A DNA stretch of 20,000 nucleotides from an uncultured Ignavibacteriales bacterium (GTDB lineage Bacteria; Zixibacteria; MSB-5A5; GN15; FEB-12), in the NCBI GenBank assembly GCA_964464605.1, contig CAYXJN010000005.1, forward strand, positions 301,184 through 321,183, read 5' to 3'. Made by a program: the position numbers and the translations under genes. A model generated the notes under the pieces. That model worked only from the letters and a program-made list of their open reading frames with translations, had not been told where the DNA came from and ran no database searches. Shown one piece after another: positions 691 through 19,904 of the stretch; position 1 is the stretch's first letter, and each line of letters starts with the position of its first letter.

Positions 691-2835
691 ATGTCGGTTG
701 AATCATTTTCGTATGACAACAAAATAGTCCGCAACTTCGCCCTTGCATCGCTCTTGTGGGGTGCGGTGGGCATGTTAGTCGGATTGATTGTTGCCATTGA
801 ACTCTATTTCCCAGGATTGAGTCTTGATAGTCCGTATCTGACTTTTTCCCGCATCCGTCCGCTGCATACGAACGCGGTAATTTTCGCCTTTGTCGGCAAC
901 GGAATTTTCATGGGCGTGTATTACTCGCTGCAGCGATTGTGCAAAGCGAGAATGTTCAGTGATACCCTTAGTAACCTCCATTTCTGGGGGTGGCAGTTGA
1001 TAATCGTTGCTGCTGCTATCAGTCTTCCGTTGGGGTTCACTACCAGCAAGGAGTACGCTGAACTTGAATGGCCGATCGATATTCTCATTGCGGTTGTCTG
1101 GATTATCTTCGGATGGAACATGTTCGGCACGATTGCAAAACGGCGGGAAAAGCATTTGTACGTTGCTATCTGGTTTTATATTGCCACCTGGGTAACGGTA
1201 ACGATGCTGCACGTGGTCAATTCGCTTGAGCTTCCGGTATCATTCATGAAGAGCTATCCGATTTACGCCGGTGTACAGGATGCGCTGGTGCAGTGGTGGT
1301 ACGGTCATAATGCGGTCGCGTTCTTTCTTACCACTCCCTATTTAGGGCTGATGTATTATTTCATGCCGAAAGCGGCCGACCGGCCAGTTTTCTCCTATCG
1401 ACTTTCTATTATTCACTTCTGGGCGCTTGTGTTTTTATATATCTGGGCCGGGCCGCACCATCTGTTGTATTCCTCGTTGCCTGATTGGGCGCAGTCGCTG
1501 GGCACGGTATTCTCGATTATGCTGCTTGCACCCTCATGGGGTGGCATGCTGAACGGGTTGCTGACGCTTCGGGGCGCATGGGATAAGGTGCGGGAAGATG
1601 TCGTATTGAAATTCATGGTAGTTGCGGTTACCGCTTACGGAATGGCGACCTTTGAAGGGCCGCTTTTGTCAATAAAGAGCGTCAACGCGCTGTCTCATTT
1701 TACCGACTGGACGATTGCCCATGTGCATATCGGAGCCCTCGGGTGGAACGGGTTTTTGACTTTCGGTATTCTCTATTGGCTGATTCCCCGGCTGTACAAA
1801 ACGAAATTATATTCTGACAAACTGGCCAACCTGCATTTCTGGATTGGTACTATCGGCATCGTCGTCTATGCGCTTCCGATGTACTTTGCCGGTATCACTC
1901 AGGGATTGATGTGGAAAGAGTTTACCCCGGAAGGAATTCTCAAATATCCTAATTTTCTTGAGACTGTTCAGCAGTTGATACCGATGTACATTATACGGTC
2001 AGTCGGTGGAACGCTGTATTTGGCCGGTGTCATCGTCGGTATTTATAACGTGTTCAAAACGATGAAACAGGGTCGACTGCTTGCTGATGAACCGGCTCAA
2101 GCTCAGGCGCTTGTTCACGAAGCGCCGACGGCGCCAAAAGCACGTTTCACCCATCGGGCGCTGGAAGGGAAAGCTGTTCCCTTTACTATTTTGGCGGTAA
2201 TCGCTGTCGTTATCGGCGGCCTGATCGAAATGCTGCCGACGTTTCTGGTAAAATCAAATATACCGACTATCGCCGCCGTCACGCCGCTTTCACCGTTGGA
2301 GCTTGAAGGGCGCGATCTTTACATTCGCGACGGGTGCAATAACTGTCATTCACAGTTGATTCGTCCCTTCCGCTCAGAAACGGAGCGGTACGGTGATTAT
2401 TCAAAAGCGGGTGAATATGTGTTTGACCATCCCTTCCTGTGGGGTTCAAAACGAACCGGTCCGGATCTCACGCGGGTAGGCGGGAAGTATCCTGACGCCT
2501 GGCATTTCAATCATATGAATGACCCGACATCGATGTCACCCGGTTCAATTATGCCGAAATTCCCCTGGTTAGCCGAGAATACGCTTGATACTGAATCGAC
2601 GGCGTCAAAAATCCGTGCGTTGCGCGCCCTGGGCGTCCCATACGCAAACAACTACGACCAGCAGGCGAATGCAGATTTGACTCGACAGGCTGATTCGATC
2701 TCAGTCAATCTGCGCGATGCAGGTATCGATTGTGCAAGCGATAAAGAGATTATTGCGTTGATTGCCTATTTGCAGCGGCTCGGCGCCGATATTAAAAATG
2801 CCGGACAACAGGCAAATCTGCCGGAAGGGAGGTAG
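691..2835 (+). CDS. ccoNO: cbb3-type cytochrome c oxidase subunits I+II, fused CcoN-CcoO
   Basis: CcoN motifs RPLHTNAVIFAF, QWWYGHNAV, WAGPHHL and HVH are present. In the same frame follow the CcoO motifs CNNCH, WGSKRTGPDL and SIMP. Confidence 0.97.
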   Translation: MSVESFSYDNKIVRNFALASLLWGAVGMLVGLIVAIELYFPGLSLDSPYLTFSRIRPLHTNAVIFAFVGNGIFMGVYYSLQRLCKARMFSDTLSNLHFWGWQLIIVAAAISLPLGFTTSKEYAELEWPIDILIAVVWIIFGWNMFGTIAKRREKHLYVAIWFYIATWVTVTMLHVVNSLELPVSFMKSYPIYAGVQDALVQWWYGHNAVAFFLTTPYLGLMYYFMPKAADRPVFSYRLSIIHFWALVFLYIWAGPHHLLYSSLPDWAQSLGTVFSIMLLAPSWGGMLNGLLTLRGAWDKVREDVVLKFMVVAVTAYGMATFEGPLLSIKSVNALSHFTDWTIAHVHIGALGWNGFLTFGILYWLIPRLYKTKLYSDKLANLHFWIGTIGIVVYALPMYFAGITQGLMWKEFTPEGILKYPNFLETVQQLIPMYIIRSVGGTLYLAGVIVGIYNVFKTMKQGRLLADEPAQAQALVHEAPTAPKARFTHRALEGKAVPFTILAVIAVVIGGLIEMLPTFLVKSNIPTIAAVTPLSPLELEGRDLYIRDGCNNCHSQLIRPFRSETERYGDYSKAGEYVFDHPFLWGSKRTGPDLTRVGGKYPDAWHFNHMNDPTSMSPGSIMPKFPWLAENTLDTESTASKIRALRALGVPYANNYDQQANADLTRQADSISVNLRDAGIDCASDKEIIALIAYLQRLGADIKNAGQQANLPEGR

Positions 2836-2838
2836 CCG

Positions 2839-3027
2839 ATGCTGCGTGAAGCTATACTGAATGTCGATAATATAGAAGTATTCGGCGCGATAGCGCTAGT
2901 TGTCATGCTTCTGGTTTTTGCCGGAGTTATTGTCTGGGTCGTCCGGCTCGACAAGCAGGTTATCGATACGCTCGGACGTTTGCCGCTTGATTCTGCAGCG
3001 AAAGGAGAGGAGGCCGACCGTGTCTGA
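2839..3027 (+). CDS. ccoQ: cbb3 oxidase small subunit CcoQ
   Basis: 62 aa, single TM helix followed by 'GRLPLD'. GGGAGG RBS upstream. Sits between ccoO and ccoP. Confidence 0.85.
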   Translation: MLREAILNVDNIEVFGAIALVVMLLVFAGVIVWVVRLDKQVIDTLGRLPLDSAAKGEEADRV

Positions 3028-3685
3028 AAATTACGATGAAAAACTCATGACTGATCATGAGTATGACGGTATTTACGAACTGGATAATGATCTCCCGCAA
3101 TGGTGGGTGTGGCTGTTCAATCTCTGTATCGTCTGGGCTGTTTTATACATGGCATATTTCCATATTTTGGGAATAGGCTATCTCAGTGCCGATGAATATA
3201 AAAAAGAAGTAAACCCCAATTATGTTCGTTCAGAAAGCGGGCCACCGAAACTTTTCGGCATTTTCCCCGAATACCGGCCGGTATATTACGATGATAAGCA
3301 ACATCGCCGGGCTGTCGGCGTACCGCTGAAAGTGTTTGTCGAGGAAAAGCGTGAAAGCGATACCATGACGTATGTCGCCTTGACCGATCAGGCATCGCTT
3401 GCAGGCGGCAAGGAGATATTTACCGCCAAGTGTGTTTCCTGCCACGGCAAATTTGGTGAGGGAGGGATCGGACCAAATCTCACCGATCAATACTGGCTGC
3501 ACGGCGGAGACTTCAGCAATATCCTGAAGACCGTCAAGTTCGGCGTTCCGACAAAGGGAATGATAACCTGGCGATATGAACTCAAACCCGAGCAGATTCT
3601 GCAGGTTGCCAGTTTTGTCGCGACATTACAAGGTACAAACCCGCCGAACGGCAAGGCGCCACAGGGAGAATTACTGACGAAATAA
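3020..3685 (+). CDS. ccoP: cbb3 oxidase subunit III CcoP, monohaem type (221 aa from GTG)
   Basis: N-terminal FixP_N motif 'DHEYDGIYELDNDLPQWW', one CVSCH, 'GPNLTDQYWLHGG' and distal Met in 'KGM'. Start placed at GTG 3020 after GGAGAGGAGG, not at the ORF-track 2900. Confidence 0.92.
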   Translation: MSENYDEKLMTDHEYDGIYELDNDLPQWWVWLFNLCIVWAVLYMAYFHILGIGYLSADEYKKEVNPNYVRSESGPPKLFGIFPEYRPVYYDDKQHRRAVGVPLKVFVEEKRESDTMTYVALTDQASLAGGKEIFTAKCVSCHGKFGEGGIGPNLTDQYWLHGGDFSNILKTVKFGVPTKGMITWRYELKPEQILQVASFVATLQGTNPPNGKAPQGELLTK

Positions 3686-3692
3686 ACGGAAT

Positions 3693-5084
3693 ATGAACGA
3701 TTCATTTCGGGATACGCTGGCGACCATCGATAAGCGAGGGAAACGGATGTGGGTTTATCCTACGCAACCGAAGGGAAAATACTACTCTATCCGGACTGTG
3801 CTTTCCTTTTTCCTGCTCGCATTTTTGTTCGGTGCGCCGTTTATCCGGGTGGATGGACATCCGTTTCTCCAGTTCGATATACTCAACCGGCATTTTTATA
3901 TTTTCGGATTGGTCTTCTGGCCGCAGGATCTCCATTTGTTCGTGCTGGCAGGCATAACTTTTTTCGTGTTTATCATTCTCTTTACCACCGTTTATGGCCG
4001 GTTGTTCTGCGGATGGATTTGCCCGCAGACGATTTTTCTTGAGATGGTATTCCGTAAAATCGAATACATCATTGAAGGAAACGGGCCAAGGCAGAAACAA
4101 CTTGATCATGCGGAATGGTCGCCGCAGAAACTGTTCAAAAAGAGCAGCAAGCTCATTATTTTTTATGCGATCGCGTTTCTTATCGGCAACACGTTTCTCG
4201 CTTACATTATAGGTATCGAGAGTCTCTGGGATATCGTTTCCTCGCCGCCAACGGAACATCTTACCGGTTTTATCGCCATGGTGATTTTTTCTTTTATCTT
4301 CTTCTGGGTATTCACCTGGTTTCGGGAGCAAGCCTGTACCCTTGTTTGTCCGTACGGGCGCCTGCAGGGGGTCTTGCTCGACAAAAACTCAATGGTGGTT
4401 ATGTATGATTTCAAACGGGGTGAGCCGCGCGGACCGGCCAAGCGCAATCAAACGCGTGTGGGTGGTGATTGTATCGAATGTGACGCCTGTGTGAGAGTAT
4501 GTCCGACCGGAATCGACATTCGTAACGGCATACAACTGGAGTGTGTTAACTGTACGGCATGTATGGATGCTTGCGACCGGACGATGGAGCGAATGAAATT
4601 TCCGACCGGCCTTATTCGTTATGCTTCGCAAGATCAGATTACCTACGGCGGATCGCGAAAAATAACACCGCGAATCATACTATATTCGACAATATTTCTT
4701 GTTCTTCTCGGAGTCACGTCGACGCTGCTGATTTTACGATCGGAAGTCGAAGCATCCATCCTGCGGACGACCGGGTCGCTCTATGAAGAATTGCCGGACG
4801 GGAACATCCGAAACCTCTATACTATTCGGGTGACGAACAAAACGTCAAAAGAACTGCCTGTCACGCTCAAGCTTGCCGGCAACCGCGGGACTATTGAACT
4901 GGTCGGACCGGAACTAACCGCCCCGCCCAACGGGCAGGACCAATCGGTTTTTACCATCGTTATTCCGAAAAAAAATCTTTTCACATCGAATACGCCGGTT
5001 GTTGTTGAATTGTATTCTCAGGATGAACTTCTGGAAACAGTTCCTACAACTTTCGACGGACCGATGCCGGGAAAATCAAAATGA
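3693..5084 (+). CDS. ccoG: Cytochrome c oxidase accessory protein CcoG/FixG (4Fe-4S membrane protein)
   Basis: Motifs GRLFCGWICPQT, CPYGRLQ, CIECDACVRVCPTGIDIR and CVNCTACMDAC, followed by a C-terminal beta-rich domain. Confidence 0.96.
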   Translation: MNDSFRDTLATIDKRGKRMWVYPTQPKGKYYSIRTVLSFFLLAFLFGAPFIRVDGHPFLQFDILNRHFYIFGLVFWPQDLHLFVLAGITFFVFIILFTTVYGRLFCGWICPQTIFLEMVFRKIEYIIEGNGPRQKQLDHAEWSPQKLFKKSSKLIIFYAIAFLIGNTFLAYIIGIESLWDIVSSPPTEHLTGFIAMVIFSFIFFWVFTWFREQACTLVCPYGRLQGVLLDKNSMVVMYDFKRGEPRGPAKRNQTRVGGDCIECDACVRVCPTGIDIRNGIQLECVNCTACMDACDRTMERMKFPTGLIRYASQDQITYGGSRKITPRIILYSTIFLVLLGVTSTLLILRSEVEASILRTTGSLYEELPDGNIRNLYTIRVTNKTSKELPVTLKLAGNRGTIELVGPELTAPPNGQDQSVFTIVIPKKNLFTSNTPVVVELYSQDELLETVPTTFDGPMPGKSK

Positions 5085-5560
5085 CTCAGCAAAAACCAAA
5101 AAGCCTGTGGGGGAAAGGGGTCTGGATAGCCTACGGCACTTTTGTATTGTTCATGCTCGGAATTGTTGCCTTTGCAGCGTACCAGCATTTTGATCTGGTC
5201 GAGCCGGATTATTACGAGAAAGGGCTTGAGTACCAGCATCGGCTTGATGGGTCTGCCAGAACCCGAACAGAGCAAAAGCAGCCCGTCATATCATTCACGT
5301 CTGACTTGAAGCAGATACAAATCTGCTTTCCGCACAGTGAGGCTGCCGATGTCATGAAAGGTACGATTTTGTTCTTTCGACCGTCGACTGCGGCTTACGA
5401 CATTCGTGATTCGCTTACTCTTGATGCAAGTGGCTGCCAGACGATAATGGATACACGGCTTATGCCGGGCTATTGGCGTGTCAAAATCGATTGGATAGAA
5501 AACAGTCAGCAATACTATTATGAGCAGCAGCTCTTTCTTGAAACGGAGCAGGGCAGATGA
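5081..5560 (+). CDS. ccoH: FixH/CcoH family protein
   Basis: N-terminal TM helix followed by 'DLVEPDYYEKGLEYQ', 'FFRPS' and 'GYWRVKIDW'. ATGA overlap with ccoG. Confidence 0.88.
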   Translation: MTQQKPKSLWGKGVWIAYGTFVLFMLGIVAFAAYQHFDLVEPDYYEKGLEYQHRLDGSARTRTEQKQPVISFTSDLKQIQICFPHSEAADVMKGTILFFRPSTAAYDIRDSLTLDASGCQTIMDTRLMPGYWRVKIDWIENSQQYYYEQQLFLETEQGR

Positions 5561-6285
5561 TGGAAGGTATGCTCTGGTCGGCGCTGTCATTGGGCTTTAT
5601 CGGTAGCCTGCACTGCGTATGCATGTGCGGACCGATTGCCGTTGCGTTGCCCAAACAGGCGAAGAATAAATTTACCTTCATCGTAAATCGCCTGATATAC
5701 AATGTGGGAAGAGTATTAACCTATGTCCTGTTAGGGAGTGTTTGCGGAGTCGTCGGTGGAATAATTGCGATGGCGGGATTTCAACAGGTCATGTCGATCG
5801 CTGCCGGAATAGCAATCATCGCAGCTTTATGCGTGCCGAAACTGACTCGGCTGCTCAATACTGATGCATCGATTCTCAAATTTGTAAATCGTGTTGGAGA
5901 TACGTGGCGGCGACTGTTTAACTCACCGCGCGCGCTTTCTTTTTTGGGGATAGGCGTTCTCAACGGATTCCTGCCGTGCGGTTTGTTGTACGTTGCTTTG
6001 GTAGCGGCAGCAACAAGCGCCGGAGCGGTTCAAGGTGCGGAATATATGCTGCTTTTTGGATTAGGCACGTTCCCGGCTATGCTGCTTATTTCCGTGATGG
6101 GCGGCTTGCTGCCGCTTTGGTTGCGCCGGACAGCATCGCGCGCCATTCCTGCCGGGGCCATGCTTTTGGCCGTATTGTTAGTGTTGCGGGGACTGTCATT
6201 GGGAATTCCGTATATAAGCCCGAATCTGAATGCATCGAAACCTGCGGGTGCATCACCGACTGCCGTGCATGATTGCTGCAAATAA
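5557..6285 (+). CDS. DsbD_2 / TauE-SafE-like membrane protein of cco operons (probable Cu/thiol assembly factor)
   Basis: Motifs 'GSLHCVCMCGP', 'YNVGR', 'NGFLPCGLLY' and 'FGLGT', about 6-7 TM helices and a C-terminal HDCC. Confidence 0.88.
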   Translation: MMEGMLWSALSLGFIGSLHCVCMCGPIAVALPKQAKNKFTFIVNRLIYNVGRVLTYVLLGSVCGVVGGIIAMAGFQQVMSIAAGIAIIAALCVPKLTRLLNTDASILKFVNRVGDTWRRLFNSPRALSFLGIGVLNGFLPCGLLYVALVAAATSAGAVQGAEYMLLFGLGTFPAMLLISVMGGLLPLWLRRTASRAIPAGAMLLAVLLVLRGLSLGIPYISPNLNASKPAGASPTAVHDCCK

Positions 6286-6376
6286 TGCTGAAGGCAAGAT
6301 GGAAGAACGCTTTTGTATCTGGGCGTCGACTTCTGCTACTTGTTTCTTCTGGTTAGGCGCGTGAAAGGCGCACTGC

Positions 6377-8503
6377 TTACCGTTTGACGTCGGTGAGGCC
6401 ATGTTTTTGAAGAAGAGAATAGAGCTGTCCTCGCGAAATCCCCAGCAGCTTTGCGGCTTTAGATTTATTCTCCTTCGCTTTTGCCATCGCTTTCACTAAC
6501 ATCTCCTTCTCAACCGTTTCAAGCGCAACTCCTTCAACCGGAAAATCTACAGAAGCGGGAGCGGCAGCGGCGATACGTGCTGATTGTGGTCGTGATACGG
6601 TGATTGGTAAATGTTCTCTTGTAACCAACCCACCCTGACAGAGAATCACCGCGCGCTCGATTGCATTGCGGAGTTCACGCACATTACCGGGCCAATTGTG
6701 TACTAACAATTGTTCTCGTGCGTCTTCTGATATACCTGCCGCAGGACGGCCGATACTTCTCCCAACCTCTTCTAAGAATGTTTCCGCAAACGTGAGTATA
6801 TCGTCCGGCCGCTCACGAAGCGGGGGGAGATGAATTTCAAATGTACAGAGCCGATAGTATAGATCTTCACGGAATGATCCATTTGCAATGGACGTGCGTG
6901 GGTCCCGGTTTGTTGCGGCAACAATTCGCACGTCTGCTTTAATCGTTCTCGCGCCGCCGACCCGGTTGAATTCCCGCTCCTGCAACACCCGCAGCAGTTT
7001 TGCCTGCATTGGTGGTGCCATCTCTCCGATTTCATCTAAGAAGAGCACACCTCCATTTGCCTGTTCGATTTTTCCGATTCGTGCTTCGACAGCACCCGTA
7101 AATGCACCCCGCTCATGCCCGAATAACTCCGATTCCAGCAGATGTTCCGAAATCGCCGCACAATTGAGTGCGATGAACGGCCCCTTTTCTCGTTTCGAAC
7201 CGCGATGAATATATCTGGCTATCACTTCTTTACCGGTTCCTGATTCTCCGGTGATGAGCACAGTTGTATCAGTTGCTGCTACCTGAGTGGCAAGGGCCAA
7301 AGCTTCCTTCCATGCTGGAGAACTGCCTATTGCCCGGTGTGCACTGTACCTGTCCAGCTCATGAGTAAGGACGGCAACCTTTTTCTCCAATTGCTGGGCG
7401 CGTTCTTCGGTGAGAGCAATCAGCCGTTCTTCATCTGCGAGTTTCTGGTGTGCGAGTGCGAGTGCGACAAGATCCGTGATACGGGAGGCGAGCATTCCAT
7501 CCTCTGCATCATATGCGTCAGGTTTACTTGACATGAATGCAATACCGCCGATCGGTTTGTCTTTGCTTCGGATAGGGACGCGCATAGTCGAGCGAATACC
7601 TGCCCGCGAAACGAAGTTTACCCAATTCTTACCGGGTCGCACAACCACTTCCACAGGTGGAGTCACATGCTTCGGGGAAATTCGCGCCTTGACCGACTCG
7701 GCATCTACCGGAGACAGATCATAGGCCAACAGAAATTGCCAGTTCGCGTCGAGCGCTTCCTGTTCGTTGCTAAATCGGTATTCCGGAAGCTCCATTACCC
7801 CCATAACTGTAGCCGCCTGAACCCGGACTCCGCCGCGATCGGGGCTGAGTAGAGCAAATGCAAGAACATCATGCGGAACGACTTCCTTAATCACTGTGGA
7901 CATCTGAACGAATACCTTTCGCACATCGAGCGATTGCGCAATGGTAGGCACCAGCGTTTCGAATTTCGCCCGCCTTCGCTGACGAATCTGTTCCTTTTCC
8001 CAGAGTTGCTCTCGTTCGGTTGCTATAGCTAAGTATTCCTTGATTGGTTCGAGCGCTCGCACATGCGTGTCGTTGAAATCATCTGCTTTATTGCTTGTCA
8101 TAATAAGCAGGCCGACCTCACCATGTTCAGTGGTGAGCGGTGCAAGCAGTAAAGACTGAGCGCCTGATTCTATCAACGTGCGATCCCCTTCGTAACTTCG
8201 GTCGAGTACCTCACTCGCATTCTTTATAATGTAGGTAGCTGCATTTGTGCGTGGCCAGAGTTTTTCAGAATACCGTCTGCGCAAGGTGGGAATAGGTTTA
8301 GGCTGTTCCGATGCTCCACGCTGTACCGTTACTGATTGAACCGCCGCTTCATCTTCGAGAAAAACAAGCTGGGCGTTGTCGTATGGAATCGATTTTTCGA
8401 GTGTCGATATCACACGAACAAAAAGCGTGACGAGACCCTCATACGATGGTTGTTCCTTCGATCCTTCTGTGCTAGTGTCGCTGGGTTTTGGGGGCGGAAA
8501 CAT
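6377..8503 (-). CDS. Sigma54-dependent transcriptional activator (GAF-GAF-AAA+-Fis-type HTH; NifA/FhlA-like architecture)
   Basis: Walker [24 protein letters not shown], Walker [18 protein letters not shown] and HTH '[17 protein letters not shown]'. Two GAF-like segments ('SLLLAPL...GLL...F', 'STMRVPI...GGI...Y'). No receiver domain. Confidence 0.95.
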
Positions 8504-12680: not shown

Positions 12681-12832
12681 AACTACGACTCGCTTAGTCC
12701 TGTTTTTACCATAAATTCCTTCTGCTTTTAGGTCGATAATATTGAGATGAAGATTAGATATGCATATCTGCCGTGTGGCGGCAGGCTTCTCTCATAAGAA
12801 CGAGTCGGGAAATAGGAGAATGTCCTTTGCCT

Positions 12833-13777
12833 ATGAGTATGGACCGTGCATCCGCAGTCAACATGCCCCAGTCATCTATGAGTGGTTCAACTAATGTGCA
12901 GAAACAGCGACAACATCGCTGGGTGTCATGGTGCATCTACCTGATTTCCATTTGCCTGCTCACTTGGTTATTTGTTGATGGAGCGTCATATTATTTGACT
13001 CCTTATAATGAACGGCCATTTCACCCGGACTATCGCGAACTTCGTCCGGCCGGGTCACGCGGACTTATGTTTGGAATAATCGGAGCGAGCATGATGGTAC
13101 TCATGCTTATTTATTCGGTCAGAAAACGGACGAAGGCACTTGGCGGCAAAATCCCGCTTCGGAGCATGCTCAATGTCCACATATACTGCGGGATCATAGG
13201 CCCGCTCTTTATTGTGCTGCATACATCGTTCAAAGTTCAGGGATTAGTTGCCGTCAGTTTCTGGTCCATGGTTGCGGTTGCCTTAAGCGGTTTCTTCGGT
13301 CGGTATCTTTATTCGCAGATTCCAAGAAACATCCAGGGAAATGAGCTTGGCCTGAAAGAAATCGAACAGGAAAGCACAGCGATGACGAAGACTCTTAAAA
13401 CTCGCTTCAATCTTGATGATCCGATCCTTCAACAGATAGAATCGATCTTCTCACGAGAGTTAATTCACACCCAGCGCGGCACCATCAGGTCTATCGTGAC
13501 TCTCATGTTCGATGATCTTATTCGACCATTCACGCGACGAAGTCTTTGGAGAAAGCTGCGAAGAATAATCATCTTACCCAAGTTGCAATTCCAGGATTTG
13601 TTTGAACTATCTTTCAAGCGGACGCTTTTGCGGAGGCGACTTGCCGCCCTGGCGAATGTTCAAAAGCTCTTTCACTACTGGCATGTTATCCATAAACCGT
13701 TCGCGATTATTATGTATCTCATTATGTTTGTGCATATCGGCGTTGCCTTATGGATGGGGTACGCTTGGTTCAACTGA
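12833..13777 (+). CDS. Inner-membrane protein with conserved-looking TM histidines (ferric-reductase/cytochrome b-like); start codon uncertain (12773-12878)
   Basis: About 5-6 hydrophobic segments, 'YSVRKR', and His in or near helices (NVHIYCG, VLHTSFK, YWHVIHKP, FVHIG). A basic soluble loop is present. First gene of the multihaem cluster. Confidence 0.72.
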   Translation: MSMDRASAVNMPQSSMSGSTNVQKQRQHRWVSWCIYLISICLLTWLFVDGASYYLTPYNERPFHPDYRELRPAGSRGLMFGIIGASMMVLMLIYSVRKRTKALGGKIPLRSMLNVHIYCGIIGPLFIVLHTSFKVQGLVAVSFWSMVAVALSGFFGRYLYSQIPRNIQGNELGLKEIEQESTAMTKTLKTRFNLDDPILQQIESIFSRELIHTQRGTIRSIVTLMFDDLIRPFTRRSLWRKLRRIIILPKLQFQDLFELSFKRTLLRRRLAALANVQKLFHYWHVIHKPFAIIMYLIMFVHIGVALWMGYAWFN

Positions 13778-13790
13778 ATACAGGTTCAAC

Positions 13791-15467
13791 ATGAACTTTC
13801 GGAATATCGGAGTTCTGGTCATGATGTTGCTTTTGTCTGAAGTAGCAGTCGTACAGGCACAACTCTCGCCGGGTGAATTGCACAAATCGCATGCCTTTCT
13901 GGACGGCGTTGAGAATTGTACTAAGTGCCATGGCACCGATCAAAAATTGGTAGCAGACAATTGCCTCAAATGCCATGCGACTATCGGCGAAGAGCTTGTA
14001 TCTCAAACCGGGCTGCATGGAAAACAGCAATATAAAGACTGTCAGCTCTGTCATGTCGAGCATCATGGGCGCGACTTTGCTCTGATTCACTGGAAAGAAG
14101 GGGAATTGAATTTTGATCACTCGCTTACCGGCTATAGGCTGGAAGGGAAGCATGCATCAATTGATTGCCGATCCTGTCATCAAAAGAAGCTCCTTGTTGC
14201 GGCGTCGAAGCTGTTAGAACAAAAAATCACTCTCGCAAAAACCTTTCTGGGCTTGAGCAACGAATGCAAGAACTGCCACTTTGATGAACATCGCGGACAA
14301 TTGAATGAAACCTGCGGCAACTGCCATTCAAGTGATGACTGGAAACCGACGAAAGGGTTTGATCATGCAAAGACAGTATTTCCATTGGTCGGAAAGCATG
14401 CAGATGTTTTCTGCGCAAAGTGCCATCTCACGCAATCGGATGGTTCAACATCAGATGACGGGCAGTTCGCTAAATTCACTAAAATAGCGCATGATCAGTG
14501 CACCGACTGCCATACCGACGTACACAACGGAAAGCTCGGAGCAAACTGCATGAATTGCCACAGTGTGGATGGCTGGCATGTTGCCAACCGAGCCGAATTC
14601 GATCATAGCAAAACGAGATATCCGCTTAACGGAAAACATGCGGCGGTTGCTTGCGATAAATGCCATATCCCGGGAAAAGAGCGAGGGAAACTGAAGTTTG
14701 AAAAATGTCAGGATTGCCACGCCGATTTTCACAAGGGAGAGTTTGCCTCAAGAAATTCAAAAGGAGCCTGTGAGGAATGCCACACGGTCGGCGGATTTTC
14801 TCCTTCACTGTTTACCATTGCGCTGCATGAGGAGAGCAAGTATCCGTTGCGTGGCGCACATCAGGCCGTTCCCTGCATAGCTTGCCATGTTGAGCCGACC
14901 AAGGGAACACAAAAGAAAAATCTTCATTTCGAATTTGCATCGACACAGTGCTTCGCTTGTCACAAAGACCCGCACCGGGGAGAAGTTACTAAATATGTCG
15001 ATGAAAGCGGATGCGAGTTCTGTCACAGCGTAGATAGCTGGCAGCTTATTAACTTTGCTCATGGCATAACAAAGTTTGGGCTTGAGGGTAAGCATGCTGA
15101 TGTCTCCTGTAGAAAATGCCATACCTCTGACATGAATGGCCTGTCACAACTAACTTTTGTAAGCGCGCTGGAGGATTGTCAGAGTTGTCATACCGATACT
15201 CATGCCGGACAGTTCGCTTCCAACGATGTGGGAGGCGCTGATTGTCAGCGATGCCATTCACCGAGATCATGGAAACAACTTACGTTTGAACATAACCGCG
15301 ATTCCAAATTCAAACTTGAAGGGGCGCATCAGAAGGTCCCATGTACTAAGTGCCATACGCAAAGAACAGAACAAGAACCTCGGACTATAGTATACAAACC
15401 GCTTGCGATAACCTGCGCTTCCTGCCATGGAACCAATAACCTCATGGACAAAGAGAAGGAATCATGA
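13791..15467 (+). CDS. Secreted multihaem cytochrome c, 20 CxxCH (558 aa)
   Basis: Signal peptide MNFRNIGVLVMMLLLSEVAVVQA-Q. 20 CxxCH counted by hand, in trihaem repeats FDH-x4-(F/Y)xLxGxH-x4-CxxCH...CxxCH-xDxHxG...CxxCH. Start ATG 13791, not 13602. Confidence 0.93.
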   Translation: MNFRNIGVLVMMLLLSEVAVVQAQLSPGELHKSHAFLDGVENCTKCHGTDQKLVADNCLKCHATIGEELVSQTGLHGKQQYKDCQLCHVEHHGRDFALIHWKEGELNFDHSLTGYRLEGKHASIDCRSCHQKKLLVAASKLLEQKITLAKTFLGLSNECKNCHFDEHRGQLNETCGNCHSSDDWKPTKGFDHAKTVFPLVGKHADVFCAKCHLTQSDGSTSDDGQFAKFTKIAHDQCTDCHTDVHNGKLGANCMNCHSVDGWHVANRAEFDHSKTRYPLNGKHAAVACDKCHIPGKERGKLKFEKCQDCHADFHKGEFASRNSKGACEECHTVGGFSPSLFTIALHEESKYPLRGAHQAVPCIACHVEPTKGTQKKNLHFEFASTQCFACHKDPHRGEVTKYVDESGCEFCHSVDSWQLINFAHGITKFGLEGKHADVSCRKCHTSDMNGLSQLTFVSALEDCQSCHTDTHAGQFASNDVGGADCQRCHSPRSWKQLTFEHNRDSKFKLEGAHQKVPCTKCHTQRTEQEPRTIVYKPLAITCASCHGTNNLMDKEKES

Positions 15468-16927
15468 GAAAGTTACTTTTGTTCATTCCAGTGATGATGC
15501 TTGTCGGTACCGGCGTTATTCTCAGTCAGTCGTCAACGACCAACCCGCATGGCAATCTGAAATGGGATTGTCAGGACTGCCATACGTCGGAATCATGGTC
15601 GTCATTGCGAAAGTATATAGCGTTTGATCATGACGAAACCGGATTTCATCTGACCGGAGCTCATGAAACGGCGAATTGCATCGGCTGTCACAAGAGTCTC
15701 GAATTCAGCCATGTCGGTGTTGCCTGTGTCGATTGTCATACTGATCAACATGAGGGACAACTTGGTCTCGCCTGTCAGAACTGCCATACTCCCCGGAATT
15801 GGGAGAACCGGAAAGACATATTGGAACTACATGCACAGAAGGGTTTCGCGTTGACTGGAGTGCATGCCGTCGCCGATTGCGAGTCATGTCATCGTGGAAG
15901 CTCGAGTCAGGATTATGCCGGAACGCCGATGAATTGCATCGACTGTCATACCACCGAATTTACCGCTACTACCAATCCGAGCCACACTCTCGCCGGATTT
16001 CAAACTGATTGTCAGCAGTGTCATCATACGGCTTCAGGAACATGGCAAAATGCAACATACGCTCATACCGCTCTATTCCCATTGACAGGTGGTCACCGTA
16101 TCACCGACTGTAATTCCTGTCATGCTACAACCTATGCCGGTATAGCCACTGATTGCTACGCTTGTCATAGTTCGGAGTTCGCAGCTACCAGCGATCCGGA
16201 TCATGAACAGGGAGGCTTCGATCATGATTGTGCGCTCTGCCACAATACAAACCGATGGGAACCGGCAAACTTTGACCACAGCGTGAGCGGTTTCCCGTTA
16301 ACTGGTCGTCACGTTTCAGTTTCCTGTAATTCCTGTCACGCTTCCGGTTATACAGGAACGCCATCGGATTGCTATGCTTGTCATCAATCCGACTTTCAGA
16401 ATGCTTCTGATCCGAACCATGTGCAGGCAAACTTTGATCAGGACTGCACAAGTTGTCACTCTACGAATGGCTGGACGCCATCCTCGTTCGAACATAACAA
16501 CACAAGCTTTCCGCTCACAGGCCGGCATGTGACTGCTTCCTGTATATCCTGCCATGCATTTGGCTACTCCGGAACGCAGTCAGCTTGTTTCGCCTGCCAT
16601 CAGTCTGATTACGACGGCACCACTGATCCGAATCATGTCTCTGCTAATTTCCCGAATGATTGCCTGAGTTGCCACACAACATCAGGCTGGACGCCTTCGA
16701 CTTGGGATCATGATGCACAATACTTTCCAATTTATTCAGGCACACACAGAAATGAGTGGAACGATTGTTCCGACTGTCATGTGCAGCCTGCAAATTATGC
16801 AGTTTTCGAATGTATTGATTGCCACCAGCATTCACGAACTGAAACGGACAATCATCACAATGAGGTTAACAACTACCAGTATCTAAGTACCGCTTGCTAT
16901 AGCTGTCATCCGAGAGGTACCCACTGA
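15464..16927 (+). CDS. Secreted multihaem cytochrome c, 19 CxxCH (487 aa)
   Basis: Signal peptide MRKLLLFIPVMMLVGTGVILS-Q. 19 CxxCH counted by hand, in the same repeat family as the upstream gene. ATGA overlap with the upstream cytochrome. Confidence 0.94.
   Translation: MRKLLLFIPVMMLVGTGVILSQSSTTNPHGNLKWDCQDCHTSESWSSLRKYIAFDHDETGFHLTGAHETANCIGCHKSLEFSHVGVACVDCHTDQHEGQLGLACQNCHTPRNWENRKDILELHAQKGFALTGVHAVADCESCHRGSSSQDYAGTPMNCIDCHTTEFTATTNPSHTLAGFQTDCQQCHHTASGTWQNATYAHTALFPLTGGHRITDCNSCHATTYAGIATDCYACHSSEFAATSDPDHEQGGFDHDCALCHNTNRWEPANFDHSVSGFPLTGRHVSVSCNSCHASGYTGTPSDCYACHQSDFQNASDPNHVQANFDQDCTSCHSTNGWTPSSFEHNNTSFPLTGRHVTASCISCHAFGYSGTQSACFACHQSDYDGTTDPNHVSANFPNDCLSCHTTSGWTPSTWDHDAQYFPIYSGTHRNEWNDCSDCHVQPANYAVFECIDCHQHSRTETDNHHNEVNNYQYLSTACYSCHPRGTH
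16058..16702 (+). repeat. Intragenic tandem repeats of the trihaem unit (213, 216 and 216 bp)
   Basis: Units start at 16058 (YAH), 16271 (FDH) and 16487 (FEH), and the next starts at 16703 (WDH). They share FPLTGxH, CxSCH, CxACH, DPxH and a Trp. Confidence 0.85.
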
Positions 16928-18543
16928 TGCGCAAGGTACGTTTCCTGTTTCTCTTGGCCTCTCTGACACTTTTCGTCGGTGCAAACTCTTTTGGTGGATC
17001 GACCTTTGTGATAAAATACATTTCAGCAGAGAATGTTTATCTCAACGGCGGTAAAGCGGATGGCCTTAAGGTTGGTGACCGACTTACTGTAGGCTGCGGC
17101 GTGGACTGTTCGTGTGAGTTAGAAATAGTCTTTGTAGCGGATCATTCTGCTTCCTGCAAGATGTTGACACAACCTTGCGATCTTATTGCAGGGGATAAAG
17201 CAATGTTATCATACTCTGTTCCAGCAGATACGGTGGCTCTACCAGTCATTTCAGTAGATTCAGCCCTGCCTCCGAAAACTGCTCCTGAACGAGCGCTGTC
17301 GTCAATTAGCTATGCAGATCAACCGATTGCGCATTTGTCCGGCAGCATGTTCTTACAGTATTACACGATCGACGATCGGAATTCTTCAAATCTTGATTTC
17401 TCGCAATTGACCGGGCGGCTTTCAATGAAAGCGCGCCATCTCTTTGGACAGCCGTTGACTTTAGGGATACGAACACGCGGAAGGTATGACCAGCGCCAAC
17501 GGGAATTTGGGGAGGTGCCGCAGAAAGGTTGGGTGAACCGGGTTTGGGAATTATCGCTCAGTTATGATGATCCCCGTTCGCGAATCAGTTTCCAGGCCGG
17601 AAGAATATCACCTCGTCGAATCGGAAGCGCCGGTTATCTCGATGGAGCACTCTTGGAGACACGAGTTACCGAGAATTTTAGGATCGGATTTTTCGGCGGT
17701 ATCGAACCGAAGTGGGCGTATGCGGATGGTGTATTATCGATGAACAAGACCGGTGCATATGTTACGGTTCTAAGAGGGGAACCGGGCAAAGCATACCTTG
17801 AACAAAGTATTGCCGGCGTTGGAGAGTATTTTGCCGGAACGGTCAGCAGAGAGCTTCTCATATCACAGGGAAGAATACAAACAGGAAATCGGTGGAGCCT
17901 GTTTCACACAATCGAATTTGATATTAACCGGAGTTGGCGCAAAGACAAGACCGACAAGTCGCTCTCTCTTTCGAGTCTCTACATGGTCAGCTATTATAGA
18001 TTCAGTTCGGCCATTCGTTTTGGTCTTAGCTATGATAATCGCACCAATTACTGGACGCTTGAAACGAGATCATTGGTCGATAGCATATTCGACGACCGCC
18101 TTCGGCAGGGGGCTCGCGCACAGCTCGATCTCAGACTTCCCCTGCGTGTGCAAACATCCTATTCTTTTGGATTTCGCGAACGGGAGGGTGATTCTGATCC
18201 TACCCTCACTCATTCTGTCTATGTTAACCGGTCAGGACTTATTCGAAGAACAATCACCGCAAGTGTTCAATGGAGTTCGTTTGACGGCCCGTTTGAACAG
18301 GGGAGGAATTATTCGGCGCAGGTTGGTGACTACTTGCTGCCTCAGGTATATGCGTCAGTGTCGTATGGCGGCTATGAGTATGGTCTTACGACTGAAAATG
18401 TCTGGCGTCGAAATCACAGGATTTCATTATCAACACAGGTCGATTTTGCTCGTCGCTATTCTCTCAGCGGCTCAATCGAATTCGACAATGGGGATGATCT
18501 GAAGGGAACGCGATTCTTAACCGAGCTTGGCTATCGGTTCTAA
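16927..18543 (+). CDS. Large outer-membrane beta-barrel (putative cytochrome-associated porin) with an N-terminal FlgT_C-like beta domain
   Basis: Signal peptide, then 'VYLNGGKADGLKVGDRLTV...LEIVFV...SASC', then a Pro/Ala linker. About 400 aa of amphipathic strands follow ('GRI...GYLDGA'), ending in the BAM-type 'ELGYRF'. TGATG overlap with the cytochrome. Confidence 0.8.
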   Translation: MRKVRFLFLLASLTLFVGANSFGGSTFVIKYISAENVYLNGGKADGLKVGDRLTVGCGVDCSCELEIVFVADHSASCKMLTQPCDLIAGDKAMLSYSVPADTVALPVISVDSALPPKTAPERALSSISYADQPIAHLSGSMFLQYYTIDDRNSSNLDFSQLTGRLSMKARHLFGQPLTLGIRTRGRYDQRQREFGEVPQKGWVNRVWELSLSYDDPRSRISFQAGRISPRRIGSAGYLDGALLETRVTENFRIGFFGGIEPKWAYADGVLSMNKTGAYVTVLRGEPGKAYLEQSIAGVGEYFAGTVSRELLISQGRIQTGNRWSLFHTIEFDINRSWRKDKTDKSLSLSSLYMVSYYRFSSAIRFGLSYDNRTNYWTLETRSLVDSIFDDRLRQGARAQLDLRLPLRVQTSYSFGFREREGDSDPTLTHSVYVNRSGLIRRTITASVQWSSFDGPFEQGRNYSAQVGDYLLPQVYASVSYGGYEYGLTTENVWRRNHRISLSTQVDFARRYSLSGSIEFDNGDDLKGTRFLTELGYRF

Positions 18544-18569: not shown

Positions 18570-19904
18570 ATGGAACAATTACTCATCTGGATAGCGGTCG
18601 CGATTGTCATTCTTATCATAATCATCCCGTATTTTTTTCAGTTTCGAAAGCAGCAGAAAGTTGTCGCTGAGCGAAAGAAGGAAGCTCAGGCAATGGGGTT
18701 CGATCGTCCCCGCGCGCAATATCCAATGGTTGACCGTGCTGTTTGCATCGGTTGCGGTGCCTGCGTGGAAGCATGTCCGGAAGGGGACGTGCTTGGGGTA
18801 GTATGGGGTATTGCCGAAGTTATCAATGGGGAGCGTTGTGTTGGCCATGGCCACTGCGAAAAAGCATGTCCGGTTGGTGCGCTAAAAGTCGGTCTGGGTG
18901 ATATAACCAGCCGTCCGGATATCCCGATGCTTAACAGCAGCTATGAAACAAATGTGCCTGGATTGTTTATCGTCGGCGAGCTTGGTGGTATCTCACTCAT
19001 ACGGAACGCTATTTCACAAGGCCAAACAGCAGTCGAAGCAATTGCTTCTCGTTGCCGAGGCAACTCCAATGAATCAATCACTGATGTCATGGTTGTCGGC
19101 GCTGGGCCAGCGGGCCTTTCCGCTGCTCTTACTGCTATTCAACACAAGCTCTCATATGTCTTCATTGATGAACGTGAAGTTGGCGGTGCGATTCTGCACT
19201 ATCCGAGAAAGAAGCTGGTGATGACCCAGCCGGTGCAGATTCCATTGTATGGATGGTTTCGGGAAACTGAGTATTCGAAGGAGTATCTCATGGAAACATG
19301 GGACACAATTATTAGGCAATTCGGAATCAAGATACGCACGAATGAAAGACTCGAAACAATCCAACAGTTGGGAGATCTGTTTGAAGTGCATACTTCAAAT
19401 GGCGTCTATATGTCGAGACATGTCGTTCTCGCTTTAGGTCGGAGAGGTACACCCCGAAAATTGGAAGTGCCGGGAGAGGAATCTTCAAAGGTTCTGTACA
19501 CTCTGATAGATACTCGCTCGTATCAGGGGAAACAGATGCTTGTCGTGGGAGGAGGCGATAGCGCTGTTGAAGCAGCCGTCGGTCTTGCAAAACAGAAGGG
19601 AAATACCGTCACGATTTCATATCGTAAGAACAGTTTCTTCCGGGTAAAGAAAAAAAATGAAGACGCAATCAATAAGTTCATCGCTGAAGGGAAAGTTGTC
19701 CCGATTTTTGATTCGCAGGTCACAGAAATTCGTGAGAGATGTGTTGCTTTAGAAACAAAACAAGGGATTCAGGAAATCCCCAACGACTTTGTACTCGTGC
19801 AAATTGGTGGTATTCCACCGTTCGAGCTCTTGCGAAGTATGGGTATTGCTTTTGGCGGCGAAAGTCGCAGCTTGCACGAACAGGCCCTACCGTTGCTGAC
19901 ATAA
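18570..19904 (+). CDS. Membrane-anchored ferredoxin + FAD/NAD(P)H oxidoreductase (TrxB/FNR/YpdA-like fold, no CxxC in the flavin part)
   Basis: N-terminal TM helix, CIGCGACVEACP, CVGHGHCEKACP, ETNVPGLFIVGE, VVGAGPAG, ALGRRG, VVGGGDSA and YRK. Confidence 0.88.
   Translation: MEQLLIWIAVAIVILIIIIPYFFQFRKQQKVVAERKKEAQAMGFDRPRAQYPMVDRAVCIGCGACVEACPEGDVLGVVWGIAEVINGERCVGHGHCEKACPVGALKVGLGDITSRPDIPMLNSSYETNVPGLFIVGELGGISLIRNAISQGQTAVEAIASRCRGNSNESITDVMVVGAGPAGLSAALTAIQHKLSYVFIDEREVGGAILHYPRKKLVMTQPVQIPLYGWFRETEYSKEYLMETWDTIIRQFGIKIRTNERLETIQQLGDLFEVHTSNGVYMSRHVVLALGRRGTPRKLEVPGEESSKVLYTLIDTRSYQGKQMLVVGGGDSAVEAAVGLAKQKGNTVTISYRKNSFFRVKKKNEDAINKFIAEGKVVPIFDSQVTEIRERCVALETKQGIQEIPNDFVLVQIGGIPPFELLRSMGIAFGGESRSLHEQALPLLT

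Follow-up and report, generated by a model that had tools for sequence, protein, structure and literature searches.

Two neighbouring genes for multihaem cytochromes raise the question whether a single haem domain can be shared between two separately encoded proteins. They lie in a stretch of 20,000 nucleotides from an uncultured Ignavibacteriales bacterium (contig CAYXJN010000005.1, positions 301,184 to 321,183), here called the window, and their products are referred to as cytochromes A and B. Both proteins consist of repeats that carry three haems each. The last repeat of A stops after two haems and B begins with a piece that holds one haem and matches the part that A lacks. Judged from its relatives, the pair is rather likely to represent two segments that re-form one trihaem domain in trans, which would give one haem wire within a conduit encoded by five genes.

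Cytochrome A (13791..15467, plus strand like all genes of the cluster) comprises 558 amino acids with 20 CxxCH haem motifs and cytochrome B (15464..16927) 487 amino acids with 19; the variants CX3-4CH do not occur. The start codon of A is the ATG at 13791 and not the TTG of the longest open reading frame. Both proteins have a signal-like, hydrophobic N-terminus and match the Pfam family Cytochrome_C7 (PF14522), A with 69.5 bits and B with 62.3 bits at a cut-off of 24.8. The units of ~75-80 amino acids with three CxxCH motifs each are recognised as Cytochrome_C7, and within a unit the elements are arranged in the order His, His, CxxCH, CxxCH, His, CxxCH and Trp.

Cut according to this haem-motif pattern, A contains an N-terminal module with three haems, five complete trihaem units (14094..15272) and a last, incomplete unit with two haems (15273..15428). 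This stub holds the ligand His of FEH and of GAH as well as two CxxCH motifs and ends at the second of them. It is followed by an unconserved, His-free tail of 12 residues and the TGA stop codon (15429..15467), where the gene overlaps the ATG of B. B starts with MRK and a hydrophobic stretch (residues 1-21, 15464..15526), which was judged to be signal-like from the translation, the cleavage site not being taken from a prediction tool. A one-haem piece follows (15527..15598), composed of NPHG with the ligand-type His, six residues, CxxCH, four residues and a Trp, and it corresponds to the missing third of A's last unit. Six complete units with three haems each and the stop codon make up the remainder (15599..16927). 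The interval 15285-15600 spans A's stub, the overlap of the genes and B's one-haem piece. The preliminary description of the window had proposed this composition for both proteins; it was borne out in both by the motif counts, the cutting into units and the matches to the unit profile described below.

The two genes are co-directional and lie in different frames, and A's TGA and B's ATG share a four-base ATGA overlap. Overlap and change of frame could also mean that one gene was broken by a frameshift in sequencing or assembly and that the two-gene layout is an artefact. B, however, has its own ATG with AAGGA directly upstream and its own signal-like N-terminus, and 74 unique pairs, which come from many assemblies and phyla, show the same layout. 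Conservation has already refuted this explanation and its probability is negligible. In the B orthologues, a like N-terminus stands ahead of the haem piece. The four-base overlap occurs in 26 of the 74 pairs and an overlap or a gap within 40 nucleotides in 67, so that the arrangement may be counted as translational coupling.

A profile of 72 complete units (80 positions) was used to compare the partial units with whole ones. H8, H19, H61 and the three CxxCH motifs are invariant in the underlying alignment; each unit has three non-motif His for its three haems, and one His-Met haem per domain was not found. The A-type stubs match positions 4-55 of the profile in 74 of 74 cases with a median of 46 bits, and the B-type starts match positions 68-80, likewise in 74 of 74 cases and weakly (median 11 bits, independent E-value (i-E) 0.003). 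The alignment of 74 A orthologues contains 20 conserved ligand-type His for 20 haems. Within the stub, H501, H513 and both CxxCH motifs are invariant and F499, L509, G511 and P537 occur in at least 90% of the sequences; Y535 is invariant among a smaller set of 14 orthologues. H29, C36, C39 and H40 are invariant in the 74 N-termini of B, and P28 is found in at least 90%. The tail of A after its last haem is unconserved and has 1-19 residues in relatives.

Units 4-6 of B (16100-16700 of the window) are highly similar to each other and belong to a subtype unlike A's units, with the His of the third haem ~11 residues past the second motif. This suggests a recent tandem duplication.

The sum of 20 and 19 is divisible by three, which happens by chance alone in one of three cases, and the weight therefore comes from the phase of the haem counts in homologues. 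A search of 61 related genomes revealed orthologous pairs, of which 14 loci were fetched, and a scan of species-representative genomes with the A alignment yielded 80 further loci, whose assemblies carry the labels Ignavibacteria, Zixibacteria, Calditrichota, KSB1 and others. After de-duplication, 85 unique loci were kept. The number of haems was 3n+2 in 78 of 79 complete A genes (17 in seven, 20 in 70 and 23 in one), the exception being L093 with 21. For complete B genes it was 3n+1 in 67 of 70, ranging from 10 to 70; L043 (14 haems, internal stop), L065 (26) and L087 (8) deviate. The B of L041 has four haems as it is shortened by a TGA and agrees with 3n+1 by accident only. Among 144 diverse cluster representatives, 73 of the 77 proteins with an A-type start and a truncated A-type end are 3n+2 (17, 20, 23, 26 or 32 haems).

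The total of 39 haems in the window is incidental, since B varies between 10 and 70 haems in the loci and B-type proteins reach up to 112. Unit numbers vary freely, and the ancestral chain of exactly 39 haems that had been considered before is not supported for this reason. Two complete B genes were found in nine loci and three in one locus, and every one of these genes has a signal-like start and a one-haem piece of its own. In L063, L085, L092, L097 and others, the large B is often trailed by a small paralogue with 10 haems. Some B genes are interrupted: in L041 (genome G042, 4449-4832) a TGA follows after four haems, in L043 (G040, 5961-7157) a TAA after 14, and in L096 B is present in frameshifted pieces. 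These are possible pseudogenes or assembly errors.

A fixed phase places the break inside a domain if the repeat register is the natural one. On sequence grounds, the register as cut here is most likely the natural domain register, given the termini of unsplit proteins, the profile match to a protein of known structure, the autonomy of the domains in the GSU1996 cytochrome and the predicted fold of a unit. Unsplit proteins begin with the His-His start and finish with the third-haem motif, i.e. on unit boundaries. The unit profile matched PDB entry 3ouq_A with an E-value of 3.3e-8, and its three haems fall in each of two ~80-residue domains (per-domain i-E 0.014 and 0.00037); we take 3ouq to be a fragment of GSU1996. 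AlphaFold2 (AF2) modelled one unit with a predicted local distance difference test score (pLDDT) of 86.8 and whole A with 81.1, and the stub within whole A reached 76-89 and was as confident as the other units. The domains of GSU1996, a dodecahaem 'nanowire' cytochrome of Geobacter sulfurreducens, are autonomous trihaem units that can each be produced alone (PMC10138318).

If the compact domain lay elsewhere along the repeat, A and B would both consist of whole domains and nothing would be split. The best Cytochrome_C7 stretch in B (95-163) does cover haem 3 of one unit together with the first two haems of the following one, and structure searches did not fix the register: a PDB sequence search with whole A gave no hits, Foldseek against the PDB found nothing at E ≤ 0.001 with the AF2 models of the unit and of whole A, and a wide search with VIA-align and the unit model gave no Z ≥ 2. 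Structure searches with haem-less models of such cytochromes commonly return nothing significant. A shifted register is quite improbable, as every unsplit protein would then both begin and finish with an incomplete domain. The unsplit proteins with 3n haems have the His-His start and the third-haem end, the profile puts all three haems inside single domains of 3ouq_A and a single unit as cut here folds with the high score given above.

Do single-chain relatives join the two proteins where the break lies? In a search for long proteins, 120 relatives of 985-2810 amino acids with 39-112 haem motifs were listed and sorted into classes by local BLAST, for which the N- and C-termini of both cytochromes were used. 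In 38 proteins, one chain combines the N-terminus of the A type with the C-terminus of the B type, and 37 of these have 3n haems. Long proteins with B-type ends on both sides are 3n+1 in 26 of 27 cases, and the remaining classes are mixed (neither terminus type, 16 of 16 with 3n; A-type start only, 18 of 26 with 3n). B's C-terminal unit reappears at the C-terminus of B-type and unsplit relatives. P0057 and P0088, with 39 haems each, are collinear with A and B in this order. The signature of the A end (Y-R-P before the second motif) and the P-H-G of the B start both lie in their ninth unit, with the canonical three residues between them. Conserved phase and fused homologues, two of the three checks proposed in the preliminary description, thus both turned out in favour of a split unit, and with high confidence the split is conserved and unsplit relatives exist.

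The joint could be placed by BLAST, as a best match to the A end followed directly by a best match to the B start, in only 2 of 29 unsplit proteins, namely P0057 and P0088; in the others it is not locatable because all units resemble each other. The haems before and after the joint number 26 and 13 in P0057 and P0088, 17 and 13 in P0135 and P0165, and 20 and 10 in P0136, the latter three proteins having 30 haems each. All five close the joint with the canonical spacing. In P0162, P0195 and P0220, a partly hydrophobic linker of 16-35 residues lies between an A-type end (23 haems) and a B-type start (13 or 10). These linkers could be relics of tail and signal peptide after a secondary fusion. 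In L045 (G036, 2572-5727), A and B are in one frame with a single stop codon between them, and one base change would join them with the signal peptide retained.

A tree was calculated for the N-terminal region with 12 haems that 99 split and 39 unsplit proteins have in common. It is unrooted and needs 12 changes between the split and the unsplit state, at least five of which are forced by well-supported branches. The approximately unbiased (AU) test on a 67-row maximum-likelihood tree, whose rows were picked after the first tree had been inspected, rejected a single unsplit clade (log-likelihood difference 230, p-AU 7.8e-10). The single, simple fission suggested earlier does not agree with these results. 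The trihaem unit was presumably contiguous once, since A's stub and B's one-haem piece each correspond by homology to a portion of a complete unit, and would then have undergone several transitions between split and unsplit forms. Repeated fusion would be mechanically easier than gaining a signal peptide several times at the same place. On the tree, unsplit forms are scattered among split ones, which provides a Rosetta-stone link of A's C-terminus with B's N-terminus.

The position of the His for the third haem of the shared unit was tallied in 129 unique A/B pairs, in which motif positions and not solved ligation were counted. It is found on B only in 72 pairs, the type of the window, on both chains in 32 and on A only in 23, including one mispairing (L107), so that 22 are listed. 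It is absent from both chains in two pairs (L043 and L096), both with broken genes. Some A-type proteins extend ~10 residues past the second motif and keep x-D-x-H-x-G-x-F. In the class with the His on A only, H590 is invariant in 13 aligned A proteins, so that 21 conserved ligand-type His stand against 20 haems. The corresponding B has 10 haems and nine conserved non-motif His, none of them at the first haem (20 aligned). A scan of metagenome contigs added 80 loci of this clade. Its layout is a 20-haem A and then a 10-haem B with its own overlapping start, and the N-terminus of this B consists of a hydrophobic segment, a linker rich in Pro, Ala and Lys and then the first CxxCH. The surplus of His on A and the matching deficit on B are predicted by a shared domain with cross-chain ligation, and His ligation across the chains is implied for the 22 related pairs of the clade.

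The split may also be a frozen accident. A and B would then be self-sufficient, the partial units would serve as stable caps, and electrons would pass by transient contact or between proteins that the remaining components of the conduit keep close together. The unconserved tail of A with its 1-19 residues fits this explanation, as do some of the observations discussed in the next paragraph. It leaves unexplained that the third-haem His is missing from both chains in only 2 of 129 pairs, both broken, that one clade combines an invariant surplus His on A with a ligandless first haem on B, and that independent lineages joined the chains at exactly this point. We therefore consider a frozen accident unlikely, but it carries more weight than a shifted register.

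Several findings weigh against a domain completed in trans. The window's own pair is ligand-balanced, with two His for two haems on A's stub and one His for one haem on B's piece. Each piece could thus be stable alone, and a cross-chain ligand is not needed, which is also in favour of a frozen accident. The same is true of the loci with two or three B genes per A, where several paralogues may follow a single A and the stoichiometry is ambiguous, and of a genome with B in which no A was found: the locus L047 (G024:C62) has a B-type gene with 28 haems and a barrel gene, a CPBP-like membrane protein is encoded there and A is missing upstream, and an A-type gene was not found anywhere in this genome, which is 71% complete. 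In L124, A and B are non-adjacent and belong to separate sub-clusters in the order B-type gene, barrel, flavoprotein and then membrane protein and A; this permutation suggests inner and outer sub-modules. The related pairs of the His tally are not independent, as the classes follow lineages and the class with the His on B only is essentially one lineage. Several B proteins of the A-only class carry a Met four residues before the first Cys, and Met or a distant His could be the ligand there. The register was derived from sequence, and the structure searches with AF2 models came out without a significant match. Binding of A to B in the window is argued from comparison with relatives.

For the window, completion of the domain in trans would accordingly follow from homology of the joint. 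Of the earlier proposal that the C-terminus of A and the N-terminus of B complete one domain, the completion itself is favoured by the placement of His in the 129 pairs and by the surplus and deficit in the A-only clade. The part that foresaw cross-chain His ligation in the window pair is not supported, both pieces being balanced. A co-fold of A 490-558 and B 22-53 with three haems and a 74-row alignment per protein gave scores of 0.22 and 0.23 compared with a mark of 0.32; it was run without controls and speaks neither for nor against the interaction. Taken together, docking of A and B to complete the domain remains reasonably probable.

Under a shared domain, the five genes would encode, in this order, a dihaem b-type membrane protein, A, at least one B, a putative outer-membrane barrel and an iron-sulfur flavoprotein, which would form an electron conduit across the envelope. 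Its wire would consist of c7-type trihaem units, and the polypeptide would be broken inside one of them, just past the second haem motif. A and B would be exported via their own signal peptides and loaded with haem separately. The one-haem arm of B would then pack on the two-haem stub of A and re-form the unit, so that the last haem of A (haem 20) and the first of B would become neighbours inside one domain. A is near-constant (20 haems, sometimes 17, 23 or 26) and would likely be the part that spans the periplasm, and B, with 10 to >100 haems and sometimes several paralogues, would likely be the outward part. We infer physical docking, the locations of the proteins and the direction of electron flow from these comparisons, the placement of A in the periplasm and of B outward with lower confidence than docking.

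More tentatively, the split domain could be a plug-and-socket connector, in which a constant, periplasmic A with 20 haems ends in a two-haem socket and interchangeable B proteins with 10 to >100 haems each bring the one-haem plug. In some lineages, a His of one chain would lock the joint by ligating a haem of the other, and the joint would be the physical link of the periplasmic and outer parts of PCC3-like conduits. This is possible rather than probable.

A and B are part of a conserved five-gene cluster that resembles the PCC3 type of porin-cytochrome conduits. The gene upstream of A (12773..13777, start codon uncertain) encodes an inner-membrane protein with five hydrophobic segments, HX13H at residues 136 and 307 and SGXXG at 172. 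The second HX13H motif is part of WX3HX13H at 303 and the first has no W. The protein gave weak matches to Ferric_reduct and DUF4405 and is probably a dihaem b-type electron carrier. Downstream of B, the protein of 538 amino acids (16927..18543) has a signal-like N-terminus and the C-terminal residues GYRF. No family was found for it in Pfam and NCBIfam, and the nearest named Atlas clusters are outer-membrane beta-barrels or porins at only 0.86, which is a lead only; it is probably an outer-membrane beta-barrel. The iron-sulfur flavoprotein (18570..19904) has two 4Fe-4S motifs and a pyridine-nucleotide-disulphide oxidoreductase domain, with matches to Pfam Pyr_redox_3 (8.8e-44) and Fer4 families. 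Counted over 94 related loci, a homologue of the inner-membrane protein adjoins A in 88, a barrel-like homologue follows the last B in 70 and the flavoprotein is present in 69. A fusion of the inner-membrane protein with A as a second Rosetta stone was considered and rejected: the N-terminal extensions of P0192 and P0248 do not resemble the membrane protein, and what looks like a long gene in L114 is merely a frame left open by high GC content.

The inner-membrane proteins of PCC3 and PCC4 have ~300 amino acids and five helices, the fourth with SGXXG and the third and fifth with one HX13H each (He et al. 2017, PMC5566968). The membrane protein of the window likewise shows ~300 amino acids, five predicted helices, SGXXG and two HX13H. 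The cluster also shares with PCC3 a (here putatively) periplasmic cytochrome of ~20 haems (A, 20) and a second, large or variable cytochrome (B, 19 in the window and 10-70 in the loci), an adjacent protein that is probably of the barrel type and repeat sequences with few residues per haem. Published PCC3 periplasmic cytochromes have 21, 24 or 27 haems, i.e. 3n, and the extracellular ones any count between 10 and 35 (Gallionellaceae pangenome, PMC9900912); the pair of S. lithotrophicus ES-1 has 21 and 18 (PMC5566968, PMC9900912). The counts found here are 3n+2 and 3n+1 and not 3n, the clusters being compared by description, features and counts. Therefore, the split is a feature of this version of the system, and the available portions of the two PCC3 accounts do not mention a split unit. 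The cluster in the window differs further by its cytoplasmic-type iron-sulfur flavoprotein. P0228 (769 amino acids, 27 haems) has an A-type N-terminus, is 3n and finishes on a unit boundary; its architecture may correspond to the one reported for the periplasmic cytochromes of proteobacterial PCC3.

GSU1996 is similar in that c7-type trihaem domains form a linear haem wire in a single chain (PMC10138318). It differs in having one His-Met haem per domain, where the aligned position is His in the present units, and in being a single chain made of complete domains; here, two chains would have one domain in common. In the OmcS and OmcE filaments, a haem receives a His ligand from the neighbouring subunit, and this bond strengthens the interface (10.1101/2022.07.17.500359); the same kind of bond is implied for the A-only clade. 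These filaments are homopolymers, built from a single hexa- or tetrahaem protein of another fold, while A and B would be a hetero-pair joined once, head to tail, through the completion of a domain. Multihaem cytochromes evolve by fusion and fission ('grafting and pruning') of haem modules (PMC9250108; 10.1101/2025.05.29.656830). The events described there shift whole modules or single terminal haems (10.1101/2025.05.29.656830), and in the available portions of these two sources we found no break within a trihaem domain whose phase is kept fixed across phyla. No description of the split unit or the phase rule was found in the available portions of the open-access literature, supplementary tables aside.

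Clusters of this kind are widespread in uncultured phyla of sediment and soil. To our knowledge, it is not known how periplasmic cytochromes are linked with outer ones in large porin-cytochrome conduits. A domain shared by two chains would be a precise and testable answer as to which residues and haems meet. The rule of 3n+2, 3n+1 and 3n allows these giant cytochromes to be sorted from sequence alone. If true, the joint would be another kind of haem ligation across chains, next to that of the OmcS and OmcE filaments, and it would offer a natural module to join cytochromes end to end and to design haem wires of chosen length.

The remaining neighbours in the window occur in none or few of the 94 loci. 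Among them is a cbb3-type oxidase operon (691-6285) with a fused CcoN-CcoO (COX1 and FixO, 714 amino acids), CcoP, FixG-like, FixH and DsbD_2-like proteins. A sigma-54 activator with GAF domains is encoded on the minus strand (6377-8503) between this operon and the cytochrome cluster, and a homologue of it lies near the cluster in only 7 of the 94 related loci.

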